A stretch of DNA of 59,532 nucleotides from Thermoplasmata archaeon (GCA_021818675.1 JAKATR010000099.1:1-59532); one strand, 5' to 3'; positions 20,383 to 34,021 are shown, counted from the first letter of the stretch. The notes: generated from the sequence alone by a model not told the origin. Numbers and translations: made by a program.

Positions 20383-21687
20383 CTATGCTTTAAACATTTC
20401 CTGTTTTCTTTTCATAAGTTCAGGTGAACCGATATCGTGTCTTATATGATATTCTCCTTTTATACGCCAAAGGTTTGATTCAACTGATGCAGAGGCCTGT
20501 TCAATTGTGCTTGCCCTTGAAATTAATGCAATTGCCCTGGACTTTGTCATTTCAAATTCTGTCAGCGATCCATTTACGGTTGAGTAATATATTGTCAAAT
20601 CTTCAGGCATATTGGAAAGATCCAATTTTAGTTTGCCGGGCACAGGATTTTCCCCGTATCCCTTAGGCACTATATATTTCAAAACCGAGGCCTGGTTAAT
20701 AAAATCGACGTCATTATTCGACGCAAGTTTTCCTTCTGCAATACTGAACAGCATGTCGCTGATATTACCTCTGAATAAAGTTAGTACATTCATGCCTTCC
20801 GGATCTGCAAACCTTCCATTCATTTCTATGAGGTAAAGATCTTTAGATGTTTGCATAAATTGTCCATACATAATACCTCTGAATAAGTTTCCATCACTGG
20901 ACATTGAATCGAGGATTTTCTTCATTATTTTCAAAGCCTTTGCCTGAGAATCCTCCCGCAAAAATGGAAGTGAATGATCTGCGCCCGTTATTGAGCCCAT
21001 TCCACCTGTATTTGGTCCAAGATCTCCTTCATATGCTCTCTTATAATCCTGAGCTATTGGCATGGAACTTATTCTTATTCCATCTGTAAATGCCTGCAAT
21101 GAGAATTCGTGACCAATAATTTTCTCCTCAAGGAGCACCTTTTTGTCCTTTCTTAAAATGCTCTTTGCATAACTAATGGCGCTCTTCCTGTCAGGTAACT
21201 GATCACCCATCACCTTGACACCTTTCCCACCGGTTAACCCTACCGGTTTTATTGCATATTCCTTCTCAGTATCATTAATAATCTTTTCCACTTCATATGC
21301 TTCATCAAGCAGGTAAAAAGGGACAATACCTGGAATGGAATATCGTTTCATTAAGGTTCTCATATAGTCTTTTGAGGATTCAATCCGGAAAGCTGCTCTT
21401 GTGGGTGAAGCAACCTTAATGCCATTTGAAGAGAGTTTATCGGCAAGATCAGTATCAAGCATTCCATCGGGACCAATGTATACCAGATCAGGCTTGGTTT
21501 CCAGTATATCTGGTATGCAATCAAGTGGTTTTGATTCCGTTAGTTTGATTGTTTTTGATGAAATAGATGAAAGGGAAGGATTTTGATTGGCCATAACTGT
21601 GATTAACTCGGCGCCGGTGCGAACAATAATTCTGCCTAAGGCATCTTCTCTCCCACCCCCGCCCACAAGCACTATCTTTATTGTCAC
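20383..21687 (-). CDS. purD: Phosphoribosylamine-glycine ligase
   Basis: N-terminal IKIVLVGGGGREDALG, followed by ATP-grasp core motifs. GTG start overlaps the scpB stop (GTGA). Confidence 0.93.
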   Translation of the reverse strand: MTIKIVLVGGGGREDALGRIIVRTGAELITVMANQNPSLSSISSKTIKLTESKPLDCIPDILETKPDLVYIGPDGMLDTDLADKLSSNGIKVASPTRAAFRIESSKDYMRTLMKRYSIPGIVPFYLLDEAYEVEKIINDTEKEYAIKPVGLTGGKGVKVMGDQLPDRKSAISYAKSILRKDKKVLLEEKIIGHEFSLQAFTDGIRISSMPIAQDYKRAYEGDLGPNTGGMGSITGADHSLPFLREDSQAKALKIMKKILDSMSSDGNLFRGIMYGQFMQTSKDLYLIEMNGRFADPEGMNVLTLFRGNISDMLFSIAEGKLASNNDVDFINQASVLKYIVPKGYGENPVPGKLKLDLSNMPEDLTIYYSTVNGSLTEFEMTKSRAIALISRASTIEQASASVESNLWRIKGEYHIRHDIGSPELMKRKQEMFKA

Positions 21688-22178
21688 TGGACTTCACCGT
21701 TATTCCCGCCGATTTGCTTTAGAAATTCCTCTTTCTTTACGTTGAAATATTTGTAAAACTTTGGTGTTACACTGAATGTTTCTGTGTTTCTCTCCTTCTT
21801 TCCTGTAATTAGCCCCTTTTCTTTAAGTGTTTTTATAGATGGGATATACCTGTCACCAAGGCTTCGTCTCAGATCTCCCTTGATGGTTCTTTCTCTCGTG
21901 GCAATAATTCCGGCAACCTTCAGGTCAGTTCTATTGAGCTCTGAGGCGGATACTGGTCCAACAATGTCCTGATATTCCTTTTTTACAGTCAATTTGTATC
22001 TGTTCCCTATTTTTGCAATGTATAATCCAGAAGTTTCTTCGCTCATTTTTTTGATTAGCTTCTGCAGTTCTTTTCTGACAATATTATGTTCTTCGTTTAA
22101 TATGGATGCCATTTCAACAACGCTCAATGGATTTTCTGAAGCATATAAGAGAGCCTCTATTCTAGCAGAGATTGTCAT
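21684..22178 (-). CDS. scpB: Segregation and condensation protein B
   Basis: 164 aa. N-terminal IEALLYASENPLSVVEMASIL is the ScpB signature. Architecture is two winged-helix domains. Confidence 0.85.
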   Translation of the reverse strand: MTISARIEALLYASENPLSVVEMASILNEEHNIVRKELQKLIKKMSEETSGLYIAKIGNRYKLTVKKEYQDIVGPVSASELNRTDLKVAGIIATRERTIKGDLRRSLGDRYIPSIKTLKEKGLITGKKERNTETFSVTPKFYKYFNVKKEEFLKQIGGNNGEVQ

Positions 22179-27035: not shown

Positions 27036-30000
27036 ATGTATGTTGAATCTTTGGAAATTGATAATTTTAAATCGTTTGGAGTGAAGACAAGAATTTTGTT
27101 CGACCAGGGTTTCACGGTCATCAGTGGACCAAACGGCAGCGGTAAGAGTAACATTGGAGACGCGTTTTTGTTTGTACTTGGCACCAGGTCTTCAAAGACT
27201 GTGAGAGCTGACAGATTGGGTGACCTTATTCATAATGGAAAAAGCAAAAGAAATTCATGCTCTGTTTCAATAAAATTCAGCCCTTCTGAAAAGGATCAGA
27301 TAAGGGAAAAGGTAGAGATTACAAGGATTATAGAGAATGTCAATGGAGATGTAAAGAGCACATATTTTTTGAATGGAAATCGTGTCAGACATACCGATAT
27401 TGAAGAATTTCTGCAGAGTATAGGTTTGCTTCTTGATTCTTATGGCTTTGTTTTGCAGGGCGATATTAACAGAATTATAGAAATGAGCGGAATTGAGCGG
27501 AGAAAATTACTTGAATCAATAGCTGGTATTGAAGGGTACAACATTCAAATTGAAAAGGCAAAGTCAGACATTGACAAGATAAATCAGGATATATCAACCC
27601 TTGGAACGCTGAGAACTGAAATAGAAACTAATATGGAAAAGCTGGCTGTGGAAGTTGACAGGCTCAGAAAATTTAAAGAAAAGGAAAAGAGATTAAAGTC
27701 ACTAAAAACCACGTACGTGGAACTCGAAATTATGGAATGTAAAACGGAAATTTCCAAAATTGATGGGCAGATTACTGTAGCCGAACAGCAGCTTGAAAAA
27801 TTCAATGAAGAAAGGAAAAGTGTCCAGAACAAAATTTCTGAATTAAATGAAAGAAAAGCAAAGGCAGAGAATGGAGTTGGTCAGGAAACACAAGCCCAGC
27901 TTAGATCTATAAAGGAAAAGCTGGATTCATTTCTCCTGCAAAAAGCTCAGCTCGATGTAAATATGGATAATCTTACCAATTCTCTTTCGGATCTTCGTCT
28001 CAGACTTGAAGAAAAGGAAGAGAGAATAGGAGAAATCGAGAAGGAGATGGGCAAAATCGGAAGCAAGATCTCCCTTAATGATCAGGAATTGTCAAAAAAA
28101 TCGGAGGAACTGGAAAGCATTAACGAGAAGATCAGCAGTATAATGCATTCATCTTCCATGAAACTCTCCCGAACCAATGAGCTTACTCTAAAAATCAAGG
28201 ATATTGAATCAAAAAAGACCAAACTGGAGCAGGAACTTCATAATATGGAGAAAGAAGCTGAGAGACTTAGAGTTCAGGTTGAATCCAGAAAGGTGGAACT
28301 GGGTAAGAAGGAAGAACTTCTTACAAATGCAAAATACAGAATGGCAGAATCAAAATGGAAACTACAGGAGATTCAGAAAGGGACTTCTGGTAAAAAAACA
28401 ACTCTGGATAAACTCAATAAATCATACTATGAACTAAGAAACCTGATAAAAGATTTAGAGAATGAGCGAACTGCAATCAGCACTAAGATTCAGACTCTGG
28501 TGAGGGATGTGGAAAGACTTTCGGCGACATCATCCCAGGTTTATGGAATGCAAAAATCTGTTAAGGCTATAATGGATGCAAGAAACCGTGGTGAAATACA
28601 GGGCATTCACAAGACTCTCGGTGAATTGATTGCCTATGATGATTCGTTAACGCTTGCTGTTGAATCGGCGGCTGGATCAAAATTGAACTCGGTTGTTGTT
28701 GAAAATGAGGATGTCGCGCAACAGTGCATTACATTGCTGAAGGAAAACAAACTTCAGCGGGCAACCTTCCTCCCAATATCAAAAATGCAATCAGGACGCC
28801 CAAGAGGAAAGGCAATCATGGTAAAACAGTCCGGAGAAACAATGGGTCTATTATCTGAAAATATAAAATATTCCACAGAATATGAAAATATAATCTGGTA
28901 TGCTTTTCAGGATACAATTCTTGTAAAGAACATTGAGATTGCAAAGAAACACATGACTGGTGTAAGAATAGTAACACTTGAGGGAGATATCTTTGAATCA
29001 AGCGGAGCCATCAGTGGAGGATTTCTGGAACGAAGGCAAAGAAACAGGGGTGCCGATGAACTTCGCCAGAAGGAGCAGGAATTGCAATCGCTGAGAAACA
29101 GAGAGCAGGAATTGAAAACTGAGCTTTCAGATAATAAGGGAAAATACGAGGAGGTATCGTCCGAGTTACTCTCCATTTCAAGCAGTGGAGGAGAAGAGAA
29201 AGGAAAGGCTGATTCCATAACCGCAGATATTGAATCTGCGAGAAAAACCATTGAATCGCTTGAGCTTGAAATATCCGGGATTAAAAACATTTTTTCCGAT
29301 GCTGAGGCTGAATATGCAAAATCCATTGCACTTCTGGATGAGGTGAAGAAGCAGTCTGCTCTTCTTGACAATGAGAGAAATCAAATAATACAGGAAATGG
29401 GAACAGAAGAGGACCCCAGTTCTAGAAAGTTGTCTGAATTGCAGCAGAGGAAGGATCAGATTGATCTGGAGATATCTACAACTAAATCAATTTCATCAGA
29501 AAACAGAGGAAGAATGAATGAACTTTCTCTTAGAAAGGAAGAGCTGATGAAAGAAATTGGTAATATTAAGAGTCAGATGAATTCCGGATCTGTTAAAAAG
29601 AAGGAATTCAATGATGTTAAAAGGGAGACTGAGATCAACATAGAGAAATATCGTCTGTTAGAACAGGAGCTCGATATTGCATCCAAAAAACTTATGGATG
29701 AATTAAGAGAAATTAACACTGGTATTCAGGAGGCTTTCACAGAAGACAATAAGATCAGAGATCGGGTTTCATCAACAGAAAATGTCATAATAACGGCAAA
29801 GGTAAGGAAGGATTCCCTCAATGAGCGAATTTTAAATTACGAGGAGGAATCAAAAAATATTGGCGGGACTGTTGAATCCTTCGGAATGTCAATGGCACAG
29901 ATGAAATTCGAGATTTCTATGGCTGAAAATGAAATAGAAAACTGGGGACCGGTCAATGGTCTGGCAGAAGAAGAATATACGAGGATCAAGGAAAGGATAG

Positions 30001-30551
30001 CAGAAATTCAAAATGATACACAGAAGCTGCAGGAAGAGAATGAGAGTTTAAAGAATCTCATGCTTGAGCTTGAAGACAGGAAGAAGAATGATCTCCTGTC
30101 ACTATTCAGAAAGATCAGGGAGAATATGAAGATCATATATAGAGGGTTGTCAGGAGGAGGCGAAGTTGAACTTTTGATGTCCGACGAATCTGATCCTTTA
30201 AACACAGAGATACATATTAGAGCAAGTCCCAAGGGGCGCGCATTTACCAAGCTTTCTGCTCTAAGTGGTGGAGAAAAAAGTATTACTGCAATGGCATTCA
30301 TCATGGCAGTTCAGAACATCAAACCTTCACCATTCTATTACCTTGATGAAGTAGATATGTTCCTTGATGGATCAAATGCAGAACGCATCGGAAGCATGCT
30401 TAAAGCAAATTCTTCCTACGCTCAGGTTATGATGATTTCACTGAAGAAAGCTCTTCTCAAATATGCAGACTCTTTGATTGGAGTTACAATGGCTGATGGG
30501 GAAAATACACAGGTCTTCCAGAAAAAGGTTGGGGAGGCTGATCCGTTTTGA
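27036..30551 (+). CDS. smc: Chromosome partition protein SMC
   Basis: 1171 aa. Walker A is GPNGSGKSN. Long heptad-rich coiled coils flank a hinge (GIHKTLGELIAYD...). The ABC signature is LSGGEKS and Walker B is YYLDEVDMFLD. Confidence 0.97.
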   Translation: MYVESLEIDNFKSFGVKTRILFDQGFTVISGPNGSGKSNIGDAFLFVLGTRSSKTVRADRLGDLIHNGKSKRNSCSVSIKFSPSEKDQIREKVEITRIIENVNGDVKSTYFLNGNRVRHTDIEEFLQSIGLLLDSYGFVLQGDINRIIEMSGIERRKLLESIAGIEGYNIQIEKAKSDIDKINQDISTLGTLRTEIETNMEKLAVEVDRLRKFKEKEKRLKSLKTTYVELEIMECKTEISKIDGQITVAEQQLEKFNEERKSVQNKISELNERKAKAENGVGQETQAQLRSIKEKLDSFLLQKAQLDVNMDNLTNSLSDLRLRLEEKEERIGEIEKEMGKIGSKISLNDQELSKKSEELESINEKISSIMHSSSMKLSRTNELTLKIKDIESKKTKLEQELHNMEKEAERLRVQVESRKVELGKKEELLTNAKYRMAESKWKLQEIQKGTSGKKTTLDKLNKSYYELRNLIKDLENERTAISTKIQTLVRDVERLSATSSQVYGMQKSVKAIMDARNRGEIQGIHKTLGELIAYDDSLTLAVESAAGSKLNSVVVENEDVAQQCITLLKENKLQRATFLPISKMQSGRPRGKAIMVKQSGETMGLLSENIKYSTEYENIIWYAFQDTILVKNIEIAKKHMTGVRIVTLEGDIFESSGAISGGFLERRQRNRGADELRQKEQELQSLRNREQELKTELSDNKGKYEEVSSELLSISSSGGEEKGKADSITADIESARKTIESLELEISGIKNIFSDAEAEYAKSIALLDEVKKQSALLDNERNQIIQEMGTEEDPSSRKLSELQQRKDQIDLEISTTKSISSENRGRMNELSLRKEELMKEIGNIKSQMNSGSVKKKEFNDVKRETEINIEKYRLLEQELDIASKKLMDELREINTGIQEAFTEDNKIRDRVSSTENVIITAKVRKDSLNERILNYEEESKNIGGTVESFGMSMAQMKFEISMAENEIENWGPVNGLAEEEYTRIKERIAEIQNDTQKLQEENESLKNLMLELEDRKKNDLLSLFRKIRENMKIIYRGLSGGGEVELLMSDESDPLNTEIHIRASPKGRAFTKLSALSGGEKSITAMAFIMAVQNIKPSPFYYLDEVDMFLDGSNAERIGSMLKANSSYAQVMMISLKKALLKYADSLIGVTMADGENTQVFQKKVGEADPF

Positions 30552-31339
30552 ATGGTAACGATGTGCTTGCAAGCATAATAACGCAATCCACGATTCTGGA
30601 GATCGACCATAAGAAATACATTGAACTCAGTGAGAATCATAATCGGGATACCCCAGTTTCAAAAATTTTGTCAAAGACCATGGATTTGTGCAAAGAGGGA
30701 AAGATAGACCCATGGGATGTTGATCTTGCCTCTTTCAGCAGGATAATTTATGATCTTGTTTCAGATGGCACGTTAAACCTGCCTGATGCCGGGGTATTAA
30801 TATCTGCAGCTTGGAGGGTACTGTCCATGAAAGGGGATAGTATCTTAGGGAAGTTCAGCGGAAGAGAATTTGAAGAAGAATTTAATACAGAGAATTTTGA
30901 ACCCTTTGAAGATGAAACCCTACTCAATGCTGAAGATGAGAATTACAGAAGCAGAAGTTCAATTACACTTATGCCTGCCCCTGTTTTCCATAAGGAGAGA
31001 AGGAAGGTTATGCTTGTTGAACTTATGGAAGCAATAAGCACCATTGATCTTTCAAATCACCCCATAGAGAAGAAAACCTTAACACCCATATTGTCAATGG
31101 ATGAAATTGCCAACAGATTGAATTCTGAGGAACCGGAGGAAGAGATTCAGAAAGTATGGAACAGGATAGTTGAAATGAAAGAACAAGAATTCTTTATGGA
31201 GGATCTCTGGGGAAAGACTGTGGAAGAAAAATCAATGTTTTTTGTCTATTGCATGTTTCTGAACAGGAATGGAAAAATAACCTTAAATCAGGATGAACCA
31301 TTTGGATCCATTAGGATAAAGAGAATAGAAAATGCCTGA
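30548..31339 (+). CDS. scpA: Segregation and condensation protein A (kleisin)
   Basis: The KIDPWDVDLASFSRIIYDL...DAGVLISAAWRVLSMKG block is typical of the ScpA N-terminus. The TTG start overlaps the smc stop (TTGA), and the true start could be further downstream. Confidence 0.85.
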   Translation: MNGNDVLASIITQSTILEIDHKKYIELSENHNRDTPVSKILSKTMDLCKEGKIDPWDVDLASFSRIIYDLVSDGTLNLPDAGVLISAAWRVLSMKGDSILGKFSGREFEEEFNTENFEPFEDETLLNAEDENYRSRSSITLMPAPVFHKERRKVMLVELMEAISTIDLSNHPIEKKTLTPILSMDEIANRLNSEEPEEEIQKVWNRIVEMKEQEFFMEDLWGKTVEEKSMFFVYCMFLNRNGKITLNQDEPFGSIRIKRIENA

Positions 31340-31589
31340 AGACGACGGTATGATTAGCGCCTCTGAGATGTCAGAATTTGAATTTTGCAGTGTCTCATGG
31401 TATCTGGATAAGGAAGGTTACCCAAGATCCGGGTTTTCTTCGCAGAGAATGCAGAGAGGTATAGAGATGCATCGGAGAGTTCATACAGGCTATTCCAGAG
31501 CGGGAGGAGCCATGAAATTGCTTCTTGTTATTTTTGTGGTCATTCTTGTTTTCGTCATTTATATCTATTTGGGGGGGACTTTACCCTGA
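31332..31589 (+). CDS. Cas4/RecB-like PD-(D/E)XK nuclease, N-terminal fragment ending in a transmembrane helix
   Basis: ISASEMSEFEFCSVSWYL (first Fe-S cysteine) and GIEMHRRVH match the Cas4/DUF83 N-terminus. These are followed by MKLLLVIFVVILVFVIYIYLGG. The ORF terminates 10 nt after a G7 run. Confidence 0.7.
   Translation: MPEDDGMISASEMSEFEFCSVSWYLDKEGYPRSGFSSQRMQRGIEMHRRVHTGYSRAGGAMKLLLVIFVVILVFVIYIYLGGTLP
31571..31577 (+). other. G7 homopolymer forming an in-phase X XXY YYZ (G GGG GGG) heptamer between the two Cas4-like ORFs
   Basis: Read directly: TAT TTG GGG GGG ACT in the upstream frame. A -1 shift here reads GAC TTT ACC CTG AAC GCT TCT CTG GAA TAT GTG GGA ATT, which is the downstream ORF frame with no stop. 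Confidence 0.9.
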
Positions 31590-31606
31590 ACGCTTCTCTG
31601 GAATAT

Positions 31607-32098
31607 GTGGGAATTCTATTTCTTTTAGTAATAATAATTTTAATATTTCTGTTAAGGAAGAAGAGGCAGGTTTATTCAATACCTGCTGGACGAGCCGTAT
31701 ATGGTGATTTGCAGTCAGAGGGTAAAACACTTGTCTCCAGAAGGTATGGCCTGAGCGGGAAACCTGATCGTGTCATTCGGAAGGGTGAGGAGCTTATTCC
31801 TTATGAATTTAAGAGCACTGAGGCTGATTCACCACGAACAGGTCATCTTCTTCAGATGGGGGTCTATTTTTTAATTCTTGAGGACAACTATGCAGGTGCC
31901 GTAATCAAAAAAGGAGTGCTGAAATACAGAACAAGAGCGTTTGAGGTTCGCAATACGCCTGAACTGAGGGAAAGAGTTCTGAGAACTGCCCAGTTGATGA
32001 GATCAATGAGGGGTGTGCCCAGAAGAAACCATGATAATCCAGGTAAATGCTTCAAATGTTCATTCAAGGAAGTATGTTCCCAAAGATTAATAAAATAA
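31607..32098 (+). CDS. Cas4/RecB-like PD-(D/E)XK nuclease, catalytic C-terminal part beginning with a transmembrane helix
   Basis: GILFLLVIIILIFLL is followed by LSGKPDRV...LIPYEFKS (D...ExK), LLQMGVYFLIL (QxxxY) and the terminal CFKCSFKEVC (C-x2-C-x5-C). Confidence 0.75.
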   Translation: MGILFLLVIIILIFLLRKKRQVYSIPAGRAVYGDLQSEGKTLVSRRYGLSGKPDRVIRKGEELIPYEFKSTEADSPRTGHLLQMGVYFLILEDNYAGAVIKKGVLKYRTRAFEVRNTPELRERVLRTAQLMRSMRGVPRRNHDNPGKCFKCSFKEVCSQRLIK

Positions 32099-33109
32099 GT
32101 GAATTTCAAGGTGAGTATGGGAAAAATTGACCTCTCACTTTTTCAGGAGGTAATAACGCAGGAAGAGCTGGACTCCATGGATTTATCAAAATCAACTGCG
32201 TATATAGGTTTTGAGCCATCGGGCACGGCACATATCGGAACTGGTCTCATGTGGACTGACAGGATTAACAACCTCGTTGATGCGGGTGTGACAGTGAAGG
32301 TTTTGATGGCTGACTGGCACGCCATGATAAATGATAAACTGGGAGGAGATCTTGAAAGAATAAGGGAGAGTGGAAGACTGATGGTAAAAACCTTCAACGC
32401 CCTTGGAATGAATCAAAAGGTTCAGATCATATGGGCTTCTGATATGGTCAACTCACCAGATTACTGGATGGAAATGCTGAAAGTGGCTAAAAGCTCCAGT
32501 CTTTCCAGACTGAGAAGAGCATTGCCCATTATGGGAAGATCAGAAGATGATGCAGATAAGGATTTTGGAAAGTATATTTATCCTTTGATGCAGGTCACTG
32601 ATATATTCAGACTTGATGTTGATATCTGCATGGGAGGGATGGATCAGAGGCACGCTCACATGCTTGCCAGAGATATTGCGGATAAAATAGGGGCAAAGAA
32701 AGCAATATCACTCCACGGTCCTTTAATAGGCAGCTTGAAGGGATCAGGAAGAATGGATTCAGAGAATTTCAAAAAAATGTCAAAAAGCGATCCGGATTCA
32801 GGAATTCTTGTAAGCGATACTCCAGAAGAAATTAAGAGAAAGATAAATCAGGCTTTTTGCCCCATTGCAGAGACCAAAGGAAATCCTGTCATAGAGATTG
32901 CAAAATTCGCAATATTACCCAGAACAAAAAATCTTGAGATCAAAAGACCAGAGAAGAAAGGTGGGCCCATGTTGATAAACAGTCCGGAAGAACTTGAATC
33001 TCTTTATTCTCAGGGAAATATCCATCCCATGGACTTAAAGGGCTCAGTATCTGAATACCTCATAAAAATCCTTGAACCTGCCAGATGGATATACAGCAAA
33101 AATGAGTAG
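32099..33109 (+). CDS. tyrS: Tyrosyl-tRNA synthetase (short archaeal type)
   Basis: GFEPSGTAHIGTGL is the HIGH region and KKMSKSD is the KMSKS loop. Length of about 330 aa. The likely start is the ATG at 32117 rather than the GTG at 32099. Confidence 0.88.
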   Translation: MNFKVSMGKIDLSLFQEVITQEELDSMDLSKSTAYIGFEPSGTAHIGTGLMWTDRINNLVDAGVTVKVLMADWHAMINDKLGGDLERIRESGRLMVKTFNALGMNQKVQIIWASDMVNSPDYWMEMLKVAKSSSLSRLRRALPIMGRSEDDADKDFGKYIYPLMQVTDIFRLDVDICMGGMDQRHAHMLARDIADKIGAKKAISLHGPLIGSLKGSGRMDSENFKKMSKSDPDSGILVSDTPEEIKRKINQAFCPIAETKGNPVIEIAKFAILPRTKNLEIKRPEKKGGPMLINSPEELESLYSQGNIHPMDLKGSVSEYLIKILEPARWIYSKNE

Positions 33110-33271: not shown

Positions 33272-34021
33272 TTAAATATTTTTGATCTTCTGAGCCAGTT
33301 CCATGGCCCGGTTAACATCCTCACTCTCAAGAGCCATGTCCACTGCCAGATCGTATACATATGAAATTATTTCTTTAAATTCTGCTTTCTCCTTTTTGGT
33401 TTTCATTGATCCAATGATCTTATCTGCAGTATCCATGCCATTTTTTACTTCTTCTTCAGCCTTAATGGCGTCCCCTTTTTCACGGTATACCTTGATGAGG
33501 CCAGCCTCAGCTTCAAAGTATGTGTCCCAATCACTGATTTTTTTCGATCTTTCAAGAACCTCTTTAAATATTTCAATGGCTTCGTTCATTGTTCGCTTTT
33601 TACCAGATAGAATGTCCGCCTTGGATGATAGTATTGCAAGTTCAAGCTGATCATCTTCAATCTTTCTGGCAAGTGTGATGCCTTTTTCAATATTTTCGAT
33701 GGCCTTCGCAGAATCTCCACTTTCATCAAGAAGATAGGCATAATTCATATAGTCCAGAGCAAGACCTGCAATATCCCCTATTTTTTCTCTCAGGATCAGA
33801 CATTTTTCCATGTAACTTATGGAATTATTTGTCCTGAATTTTTCAAGACCATAATATGCCTGTGACATCTTGCTGTAGATTTCACATAACTCTTCATCCT
33901 TACCCTCATTCTTCTGTGCAAGCACATTGAGAATTCTCAGGGAATCCATGAATTTTCCCTTTTCCATTAGCTTATCAGCCTGATTCATGTCAGGTTCTTT
34001 TTCTATTTTTTCATCTGTCAT
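33272..34021 (-). CDS. TPR-repeat protein
   Basis: 249 aa of repeated ~34-aa helical units with A/Y/L periodicity (e.g. AYYGLEKF, YAYLLDESGDSAKAIENIEKGI). The start overlaps the stop of the upstream HMG-CoA reductase gene (ATGA). Confidence 0.7.
   Translation of the reverse strand: MTDEKIEKEPDMNQADKLMEKGKFMDSLRILNVLAQKNEGKDEELCEIYSKMSQAYYGLEKFRTNNSISYMEKCLILREKIGDIAGLALDYMNYAYLLDESGDSAKAIENIEKGITLARKIEDDQLELAILSSKADILSGKKRTMNEAIEIFKEVLERSKKISDWDTYFEAEAGLIKVYREKGDAIKAEEEVKNGMDTADKIIGSMKTKKEKAEFKEIISYVYDLAVDMALESEDVNRAMELAQKIKNI

Follow-up and report, generated by a model that had tools for sequence, protein, structure and literature searches.

A predicted membrane-anchored Cas4-family nuclease encoded in two pieces beside smc-scpA in Thermoplasmatales

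Behind the condensin genes smc and scpA of a Thermoplasmata archaeon lie two short open reading frames (ORFs) that together resemble one nuclease. They occur in a contig of 59,532 nucleotides (GCA_021818675.1, JAKATR010000099.1:1-59532), the whole stretch of DNA analysed and hereafter termed the window. An initial annotation gave ORF1 as 31332-31589 and ORF2 as 31607-32098, the second in the -1 frame relative to the first, and the coordinates and frames are correct. It described the two as halves of a solo Cas4-like nuclease with a membrane anchor, separated at a run of seven guanines (G7). We read the locus as coding for a Cas4-family nuclease that is naturally split into two subunits and anchored in the membrane, a PD-(D/E)xK enzyme carrying an iron–sulfur (Fe-S) 'staple'. 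On the strength of sequence comparisons and a structural model we assign this a probability of roughly three in four. The split is best read as an ancient, conserved two-gene architecture, an option that the initial annotation did not weigh, and the object of interest is this two-gene, membrane-anchored Cas4-like family, not the G7 run.

The two ORFs match complementary ranges of Cas4 profiles. ORF1, the N-piece, aligns with positions 3-47 of the PADLOC Cas4 model PDLC01447 (E 4e-4) and ORF2, the C-half, with positions 37-160 (E 2e-15), whilst the joined sequence covers positions 3-160 of 161 in a single stretch. ORF2 scores above the Pfam cut-offs for both Cas_Cas4 (37.3 bits, cut-off 22.7) and PDDEXK_1 (34.6 bits). 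For the NCBIfam cas4 model TIGR00372, with a cut-off of 65 bits, ORF2 alone reaches 60.6 bits, the joined sequence 67.3 bits and a fused homologue 100.5 bits. No Pfam or NCBIfam model matches the N-piece. A profile built from 23 N+C pairs and natural fusions matches the type I-C Cas4 structure 8D3L (E 2e-17) in two stretches, profile positions 3-66 corresponding to residues 4-65 and positions 154-254 to residues 103-202; 4R5Q, 7MI4 and 4IC1 are matched also.

The motifs are distributed accordingly over the pair. The first of the cluster cysteines lies in the N-piece together with a conserved histidine, and the C-half contributes the aspartate, ExK, QxxxY and CxxCx5C elements, of which GKPD54 and E67-F-K69 align with the Cas4 motifs of 8d3l and 4r5q. 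His47 of the N-piece corresponds to the metal-site histidine His62 of SSO0001 (PMC13621843), and Cys19 would by homology with Cas4 structures be the fourth Fe-S ligand. Taken together the two ORFs possess the PD-(D/E)xK motifs, QhxxY, the four cluster cysteines and the curated score thresholds that define the family, with the cysteines on two polypeptides, Cys19 in ORF1 and Cys148, Cys151 and Cys157 in ORF2. They depart from the single soluble chain of approximately 160-220 residues in being two ORFs, each with a transmembrane helix, and the locus does not have the adjacent cas1/cas2 and repeat array of a CRISPR adaptation module. ORF1 and ORF2 are, as far as homology can tell, complementary parts of a Cas4-family Fe-S nuclease. 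Both the idea of two halves of one enzyme and the call of a solo Cas4-family nuclease have stood up; of the profile matches proposed as a check in the initial annotation, those to Cas4 are given by the joined 255-residue sequence and that to PDDEXK_1 by ORF2.

Each piece carries a strongly hydrophobic segment, with Kyte–Doolittle means over 19 residues above 3.0 at residues ~62-81 of ORF1 and in the first ~16 residues of ORF2; we call these transmembrane helices TM1 and TM2. An AlphaFold2 model of the 255-residue fusion, computed from a 52-row alignment of database homologues (fused, C-half and N-piece rows), has a mean predicted local distance difference test score (pLDDT) of 85.7 and a predicted template-modelling score (pTM) of 0.81. 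In it the N-terminal helices pack on the beta core and residues 57-79 and 89-112 form an antiparallel helical hairpin, so that the hairpin of two hydrophobic helices noticed at the outset is supported by both hydropathy and model. The best Foldseek match is the Cas4 structure 8d3l (E 1e-7, target-normalised template-modelling score 0.66), followed by Cas4-Cas1, Dna2, AdnAB, SSO0001, MGME1 and Exo5; matches among iron-staple nucleases include 5eax, 7sjr, 6ppu and 7lw9. Because basic residues stand ahead of TM1 (HRRVH...R..K) and behind TM2 (RKKR) and none occurs in the short loop, the positive-inside rule would place both soluble parts in the cytoplasm. An NAS sequon in the inter-helix loop was dropped as a feature, being replaced by NSY in one relative (L001) and NTV in another (L064).

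Is the split real? Homopolymers are error-prone and one extra G would yield a clean 255-residue ORF, and a sequencing or assembly indel, with a true run of eight (or five) guanines and a single ORF, was among the options first put forward. The exact ORF1 product is present on 23 contigs and the exact ORF2 product on 22, drawn from NCBI, JGI, ENA and Logan; a protein of 'Thermoplasmatales archaeon E-plasma' (EQB67247.1) belongs to this cluster. Six separate ENA assemblies of different samples have the identical G7, as does the GenBank acid-mine-drainage contig ACXJ01012612. A search of 5.8 billion protein clusters with the joined sequence returned no fused product, only proteins of 152-206 residues, every one of them a C-half with an N-terminal hydrophobic helix, and relatives without a G run show the same two ORFs. 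The recurrence on 22-23 contigs, the G7 of independent assemblies and the lack of any product above 206 residues refute the indel, to which we attach practically no weight.

The gene order smc-scpA-N-piece-C-half-tyrS, with the nuclease in two ORFs, is common to all Thermoplasmatales loci compared (L001-L021 and L064-L067), down to 36% identity in SMC and ~30% in ScpA, and the N-piece ORF in the contigs of close relatives is 82-89 residues long. The initial annotation had proposed to look for split versus single ORFs and for synteny across the Thermoplasmatales; split and smc-scpA linkage are there in every relative examined. The details of the junction vary. Relatives at 85-95% identity keep the -1 offset, and G7 is kept only in those of ~95% identity that were checked (L001, L003, L005 and L062). 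At 46-58% identity (B_DKE, Cuniculiplasma and others) the offset is +1, the first ORF ends in TGA, TAG or TAA, an ATG follows one base past the stop and there is no G run; most Thermoplasmatales relatives share this offset, these stops and the lack of a G run. The split would appear ancestral for the whole order, and is common elsewhere.

Conservation extends to the residues that matter. All 18 N-pieces compared, from archaea and bacteria, are invariant at Glu12, Cys19, Trp23, Gly43 and His47, and all 16 C-halves at Asp54, Glu67, Lys69, Gln83, Tyr87, His142, Cys148, Cys151 and Cys157. The ratio of non-synonymous to synonymous change (dN/dS) was computed for the window against L001, between which synonymous sites are saturated (proportion of synonymous differences, pS, 0.6-0.7): the soluble part of the N-piece gives 0.014, the C-half 0.025 and the linker plus TM2 0.16. 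The locus shows what is expected of a conserved fission, namely separate adjacent ORFs in divergent lineages, fused orthologues elsewhere and purifying selection on both parts. These ratios indicate that both halves are functional and under strong purifying selection. A further suggestion was that the gene is phase-variable, the G run acting as an on/off switch, or is a pseudogene in the course of loss. The tract does lie inside coding sequence, and annotators disagree on where the C-half starts, public entries for the same gene giving products of 129-187 residues. However, tract length shows no polymorphism in at least eight independent assemblies, the catalytic and cluster residues are invariant across phyla, and the two-ORF state is common to lineages that have diverged to 46-58% identity. 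A decaying gene is excluded because the low dN/dS of both halves (0.014-0.025) is found against saturated synonymous change, and phase variation or decay is in our view scarcely credible.

What then is the G7 run? The initial annotation was right about its sequence: it reads TTG GGG GGG in the frame of ORF1, a perfect X XXY YYZ heptamer, across which the -1 frame, from 31412 onwards, is open, and re-reading one G gives a stop-free product of 255 residues (...YLGG-DFTLNASLEYVGILF...). As a statistically unusual feature it was rejected, the string GGGGGGG occurring twice in the window against 3.9 +/- 2.2 times in dinucleotide-preserving shuffles. It encodes a Gly-Gly pair, and LGG is kept in the subclade. 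The same place holds CTT GGA GGT AGC in L007/8, with a TAG in the -1 frame exactly there, and CTT GGA GGG AGT in L064. A G-rich element thus stands 8 nucleotides (nt) ahead of the overlap of CTG and TGA in four of four subclade lineages, in all of which CCCTGA is invariant. Read from this CTG, the lineages begin NASLEYVGILF.., NSYYEYVGILF.., NTVYIFAILL.. and TSLYIYVIAG... Comparable elements precede other genes of the window, GGGGAGG lying 10 nt ahead of the TTG start of scpA and AAGGTGA before the ATG of tyrS at 32117. The most economical reading is that the G-rich stretch serves as a ribosome-binding-like element for a coupled downstream ORF and that an ancestral ATGA overlap became CTGA, because G7 matches the GGAGGT (L007) and GGAGGG (L064) of relatives in position and in its spacing of 8 nt from the CTG at 31586, and because the CTG-read peptides align with the N-termini of ATG-started relatives (MENIYLEAILS.., MLLPVYFIIPF..). 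The stretches in which the start of the C-half is unclear are 31586-31609 in the window, 4947-5003 in L001, 2447-2503 in L064 and 2435-2503 in L065.

The pair is not confined to the Thermoplasmatales. In a survey of GTDB species representatives, which provided 46 loci, about 33 show the C-half immediately preceded by an N-piece ORF, the two frequently overlapping by 4 nt. Split pairs were seen in Methanothrix, Blastocatellia, Anaerolineae, Oscillochloris, Acidobacteriaceae, Gemmatimonadaceae and Thermoanaerobacter; the two-gene arrangement occurs in Chloroflexota and Acidobacteriota. Five of the 46 loci have a single fused ORF, four from Methanomassiliicoccaceae (327-328 residues) and one from a Thermoplasmata archaeon (275 residues), one has a disrupted fused-type gene and two are cut by contig ends. 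Two irregular loci were noted, a fused-type gene broken into two frames in a Methanomassiliicoccaceae metagenome-assembled genome (MAG) (L059, 5379-6381) and an N-piece that matches only in fragments in a Bryobacteraceae MAG (L047, 5648-5907); these breaks are possibly assembly errors or real pseudogenes. N-piece homologues also stand alone at 72-116 residues, in isolate genomes too (Thermoanaerobacter kivui TKV_c18300, Caldanaerobacter subterraneus and Thermoanaerobacterium thermosaccharolyticum).

When 1.84 billion representatives were searched exhaustively with a profile, 136 clusters (50% identity) reached E <= 1e-30; the best 150 matches comprise about 112 proteins as long as a C-half and about 38 fusions. 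Methanomassiliicoccales and other Thermoplasmata are rich in the fused forms, of which at least 302 clusters score E <= 1e-10. Between the Cas4 N- and C-parts these proteins have two, four or eight hydrophobic helices, always an even number, so both soluble parts stay on one side of the membrane. Examples are P0086 (275 residues), P0082/P0098 (325-327 residues) and P0133/P0134 (555-559 residues). Their helices have the look of a single hairpin unit that was duplicated, with recurring ...VLWFSLIA... and ...ALIWLIG... motifs. In a neighbour-joining tree of the nuclease domain, effectively unrooted, the Thermoplasmatales split forms make up one clade and the fused forms another, a tree that cannot order fission and re-fusion.

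Several observations weigh against a split two-subunit enzyme as we have described it. The structural model is of an artificial single chain and not of two polypeptides, and the genomic context, considered below, yields almost no clue to a biological role. In addition, none of ATG, GTG and TTG occurs ahead of TM2 in L001-L006, L064 and L065/66. L001-6 have GTC in place of the GTG of the window, L064 has canonical start codons only two-thirds into TM2, and in L065/66, which form a B_DKE-like lineage of +1 offset, the sole such codon is an ATG close to where TM2 ends. Their TM2 is still hydrophobic and stop-free, and the linker plus TM2 is constrained, as the dN/dS above indicates. Because no canonical start lies upstream of TM2 and TM2 is nonetheless constrained, translation of the C-half in part of the subclade needs either a near-cognate start (CTG, or ATC/ATT) or recoding. 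Finally, in five Chloroflexota-type loci (L031, L035, L036, L042 and L043) the C-half stands without a detectable N-piece in the 900 nt upstream; its partner may be encoded elsewhere, have diverged beyond detection or have been lost.

The starts bear on programmed -1 recoding in the subclade, in which a slip, either at G GGG GGG or at the CCC that precedes TGA with the G-rich stretch as stimulator, would re-fuse the 255-residue hairpin protein. Such recoding predicts a fused product of ~29 kDa, with junction peptide ...YLGGDFTLNASLEY... or ...GGTLPLNASLEY..., the trans-frame peptides being ...LGGDFTLNASLEY... or ...GGTLPLNASLEY.... The perfect zero-frame heptamer with an open -1 frame in the window, L001-6 and L062 is as this explanation would have it, and so is the constraint on TM2 in L001-6 where no canonical start precedes it; the heptamer is, however, absent from L007/8 and L064 despite the same split, and the TAG of L007/8 would close the -1 frame there. 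The invariant CCCTGA, which is C CCC TGA in L007, might offer another site, yet no one slip site is common to all four lineages. A GGAGG-like element lies upstream, as it does in dnaX-type frameshift sites, but the region 31565-31680, which takes in G7 and the RNA 3' of it, folds no better than shuffled sequences (z = +0.54). Fused homologues prove that a one-chain version is viable; against this the window and L007 keep a GTG start of their own, the other lineages all use an ordinary stop followed by ATG at +1 or -1 offsets, and a CTG overlapping TGA with a G-rich element 8 nt upstream explains the same facts. Slippage at G7, as first suggested, is unsupported, and recoding of either kind we judge improbable. 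Of the original interpretation, then, the nuclease, the membrane helices and the condensin neighbourhood have held, whereas indel, phase variation or decay, and slippage have failed as accounts of the split.

The lone C-halves invite the thought that this part is a self-sufficient, single-pass membrane nuclease, with ORF1 an unrelated small membrane protein travelling along. That cluster-less mutants of the Methanosarcina mazei solo-Cas4 keep nuclease activity (PMC12501428) is compatible with it, as are the five loci without a detectable adjacent N-piece. ORF1, however, specifically matches the Cas4 N-terminus with its cluster cysteine and metal-site histidine invariant, about 33 of 46 loci, from different phyla, have such a piece next to the C-half, and the two are covalently joined in hundreds of fused homologues. 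We consider a self-sufficient C-half very improbable and keep to the two-subunit nuclease.

The coordinates of the pair and of the genes on either side are given in Table 1.

Table 1. Features of the smc-tyrS gene array, in window coordinates
Feature	Position	Strand	Remarks
smc	27036..30551	+	1171 aa; first gene of tight array; Pfam SMC_N 2e-46, SMC_hinge 1e-25
scpA (predicted divergent kleisin)	30548..31339	+	263 aa; overlaps smc by 4 nt and N-piece by 8 nt
N-piece of nuclease (ORF1)	31332..31589	+	85 aa; Cas4 N-terminal module and C-terminal TM1
TM1 (predicted)	~31515-31574	+	in N-piece
N-piece key residues	C19 31386-31388; H47 31470-31472		E12, C19 (predicted first Fe-S ligand), W23, G43-x3-H47
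G7 run	31571..31577	+	last base of Leu80 (TTG) and both codons of Gly81-Gly82, at outer end of TM1
CTGA	31586..31589	+	CTG in ORF2 frame overlapping TGA stop of ORF1; homologous to ATG start of relatives' C-half
C-half of nuclease (ORF2)	31607..32098	+	163 aa from GTG; 170 aa if CTG 31586 is the start
TM2 (predicted)	~31610-31654	+	N-terminal in C-half, followed by RKKR
C-half catalytic residues (predicted)	D54 31766-31768; E67 and K69 31805-31813; Q83 and Y87 31853-31867
C-half H142 and cluster cysteines (predicted)	H142 32030-32032; cysteines within 32048-32077		C148, C151, C157
tyrS	32117..33109 (probable start)	+	last gene of array; Pfam tRNA-synt_1b 1.5e-41

The 263-residue gene upstream of the pair appears to be a divergent scpA. 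Its product scores only 15.5 bits with Pfam SMC_ScpA yet covers positions 3-230 of 232, and a profile of its family aligns, in the right order, with structures of the N-domain (6ivh, E 6e-5) and the C-domain (5xns and 4i99, E 1e-3) of ScpA. Successive gaps from smc through scpA, N-piece and C-half to tyrS are -4, -8, +17 (-4 with the CTG start) and 0 to +18 nt, spacing which points to a single transcription unit. The tight packing behind smc-scpA, the overlap of the N-piece with the scpA stop and the abutment to tyrS had all been noticed in the initial annotation; the C-half ORF ends one base ahead of the tyrS ORF. The latter opens at GTG 32099, with the ATG at 32117 preceded by the AAGGTGA mentioned above, and gene calls in relatives use the matching ATG (330 residues); 32117 is probably the true start.

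The window (G+C 37%) contains no CRISPR-like repeat array over its 59.5 kb, and a PADLOC scan of the 46 other large ORFs showed no Cas family in the 25 listed of 47 families matched, in agreement with the earlier statement that array and cas genes are lacking. One large ORF is a UvrD-type helicase that matches many GajB models and an RTasHel model of PADLOC (best E 5e-42); a repair helicase of the usual UvrD/PcrA-like kind is more probable here than a defence gene. Downstream of tyrS a tetratricopeptide repeat (TPR) protein (33272-34021, minus strand) gives 26.5 bits with the Pfam Csm6 6H domain, below the cut-off of 27.6, and its orthologues in L001, L002 and L004 give the same faint match, which is probably helical-repeat similarity only.

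Linkage of the pair to smc-scpA is conserved only within the Thermoplasmatales. No homologue of the SMC, ScpA or TyrS of the window is found within ~6 kb of the pair in 40 other loci (L022-L061). All-against-all clustering of neighbouring ORFs leaves the partner half as the only neighbour shared across phyla. A Pfam scan of 101 neighbours from 18 loci outside the Thermoplasmatales found no family in more than two loci; the neighbours there are unrelated housekeeping genes. Genes beside the pair in relatives include smc, scpA, tyrS, HMG-CoA reductase, FEN1 and RadB. Behind the pair come nadK, a small ORF and a RecN-like SMC_N protein in an Anaerolineales MAG (L028, 6435-9623) and endonuclease V in a Blastocatellia MAG (L027, 5562-6284); these are isolated DNA-repair neighbours with no conserved pattern. 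A mobile-element origin was considered and rejected, tblastn giving five weak plasmid matches and no phage match. The context fits a vertically inherited solo-Cas4 rather than a defence-island or mobile-element gene.

Within the Thermoplasmatales the embedding of the pair in the condensin array, order-wide as it is, suggests co-expression with Smc-ScpA. The scpB gene of the window lies apart (21684-22178, minus strand, Pfam SMC_ScpB 6.7e-26), ~5 kb upstream of smc, and the slot behind scpA, the place of scpB in bacteria, is taken by the nuclease pair. This placement agrees with a survey in which scpA and scpB are adjacent in one of 12 Thermoplasmatales as against six of six Methanomassiliicoccales (PMC7055376). 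A bolder proposal is that the housekeeping condensin operon of Thermoplasmatales carries its own two-piece membrane Fe-S nuclease in the scpB slot, acting with Smc-ScpA at the membrane on chromosomal or incoming DNA, the second piece in the E-plasma subclade being made in a non-canonical way, through the CTG start or through -1 recoding that re-fuses the halves. As a whole this seems to us unlikely; if true, SMC and nuclease would be partners here much as in Wadjet, Lamassu or SbcCD, with condensin as the SMC side.

How might the pair work? ORF1 would give an 85-residue tail-anchored piece in which TM1 follows the N-terminal helices of Cas4 that bear the first cluster cysteine and G-x3-H. ORF2 would be anchored by its N-terminal helix TM2, ahead of the D/ExK/QxxxY core and the C-x2-C-x5-C cysteines. 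G7 would encode Gly-Gly whilst doubling as the G-rich, ribosome-binding-like element for the coupled second ORF. TM1 and TM2 may pair in the membrane in the manner of the single-chain hairpin of fused homologues. A [4Fe-4S] cluster would then be built across the chains from Cys19 with Cys148, Cys151 and Cys157, and likewise a metal site from His47 with Asp54, Glu67 and Lys69. With cluster and metal site shared in this way, neither piece should be active alone. From the family one would expect a metal-dependent nuclease that attacks DNA ends or single strands, and the membrane location suggests that its substrates lie at the envelope, for instance DNA entering the cell, chromosome regions attached to the membrane or intermediates of segregation. 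In Thermoplasmatales the pair would be co-expressed with condensin. We would give no specific biological role more than a small chance of being right; a tentative proposal is a vertically inherited, housekeeping DNA-end nuclease at the inner membrane face, concerned with repair, chromosome handling or destruction of entering DNA.

The findings matter on several counts. A large subfamily (at least 136 clusters at 50% identity), which has a membrane hairpin set into its Cas4 fold and is very often encoded by two genes, is apparently undescribed. In its two-gene members the Fe-S cluster and active site must, on our reading, assemble from two membrane-anchored chains, and the pair would place a Cas4-type nuclease at the inner membrane face, a hypothesis that can be tested. 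Annotation is affected, C-half starts being called inconsistently and the N-piece left as 'hypothetical'. The order-wide joining of the pair to the smc-scpA array is a lead, no more, for a condensin-linked nuclease.

Comparison with known systems helps to define what is distinctive. The pair shares fold and full motif set with the CRISPR Cas4 proteins (DUF83/COG1468/TIGR00372; 8D3L, 4IC1 SSO0001, 4R5Q Pcal_0546, 7MI4 Cas4-Cas1). It differs in lacking cas1, cas2 or a CRISPR array nearby, and in a fold interrupted between N-terminal helices and beta core by a transmembrane hairpin, inside which the gene is cut. A closer likeness is to the solo-Cas4 genes (PMC5704561, PMC12501428), stand-alone, chromosomal and vertically inherited outside CRISPR loci with housekeeping-type neighbours, although the solo-Cas4 proteins described are soluble single chains. 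The one archaeal member studied biochemically, that of M. mazei (Rentz et al. 2025, PMC12501428), is a soluble oligomer of 30.7 kDa. The phylogenomic survey of Cas4 (Hudaiberdiev et al. 2017, PMC5704561) makes no mention of transmembrane, split, Thermoplasma or SMC. The literature searched, of which coverage is incomplete, held no description of a Cas4 that is split or membrane-bound, so that a prior description is possible; the initial annotation had likewise known of no Cas4-family nuclease with a membrane hairpin that is co-transcribed with condensin. What Cas4 homologues do outside CRISPR loci is acknowledged to be an unanswered question (PMC5704561, PMC12501428).

The nuclease domains of AddB, AdnAB, Dna2 and Exo5 have the same Fe-S staple, of one N-terminal and three C-terminal cysteines, and a RecB-type site. 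Those are domains of large soluble helicase-nucleases, whereas here the staple would bridge two membrane-anchored chains. With -1 frameshift sites (dnaX, insertion sequence (IS) elements, Sulfolobus fucA1) the junction has in common a zero-frame X XXY YYZ heptamer and a downstream ORF in -1; unlike them it has a heptamer unconserved among relatives with the same split, no stimulatory structure and an independent start available.

Genes for reverse gyrase and tRNA synthetases of Nanoarchaeum are encoded in two pieces, and there too one ancestral enzyme is made as two polypeptides needing reassembly. In our pair the break falls inside a membrane hairpin whose helices could drive association, and the genes are adjacent and, it would appear, translationally coupled. 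Wadjet JetABCD/MksBEFG, Lamassu and SbcCD/Mre11-Rad50 resemble the locus in arraying a nuclease gene with smc and kleisin, here order-wide. In contrast to those systems, the SMC of the Thermoplasmatales array is the housekeeping condensin, linkage to smc is absent outside the order, and the nuclease is of another fold family and is predicted to be membrane-bound.

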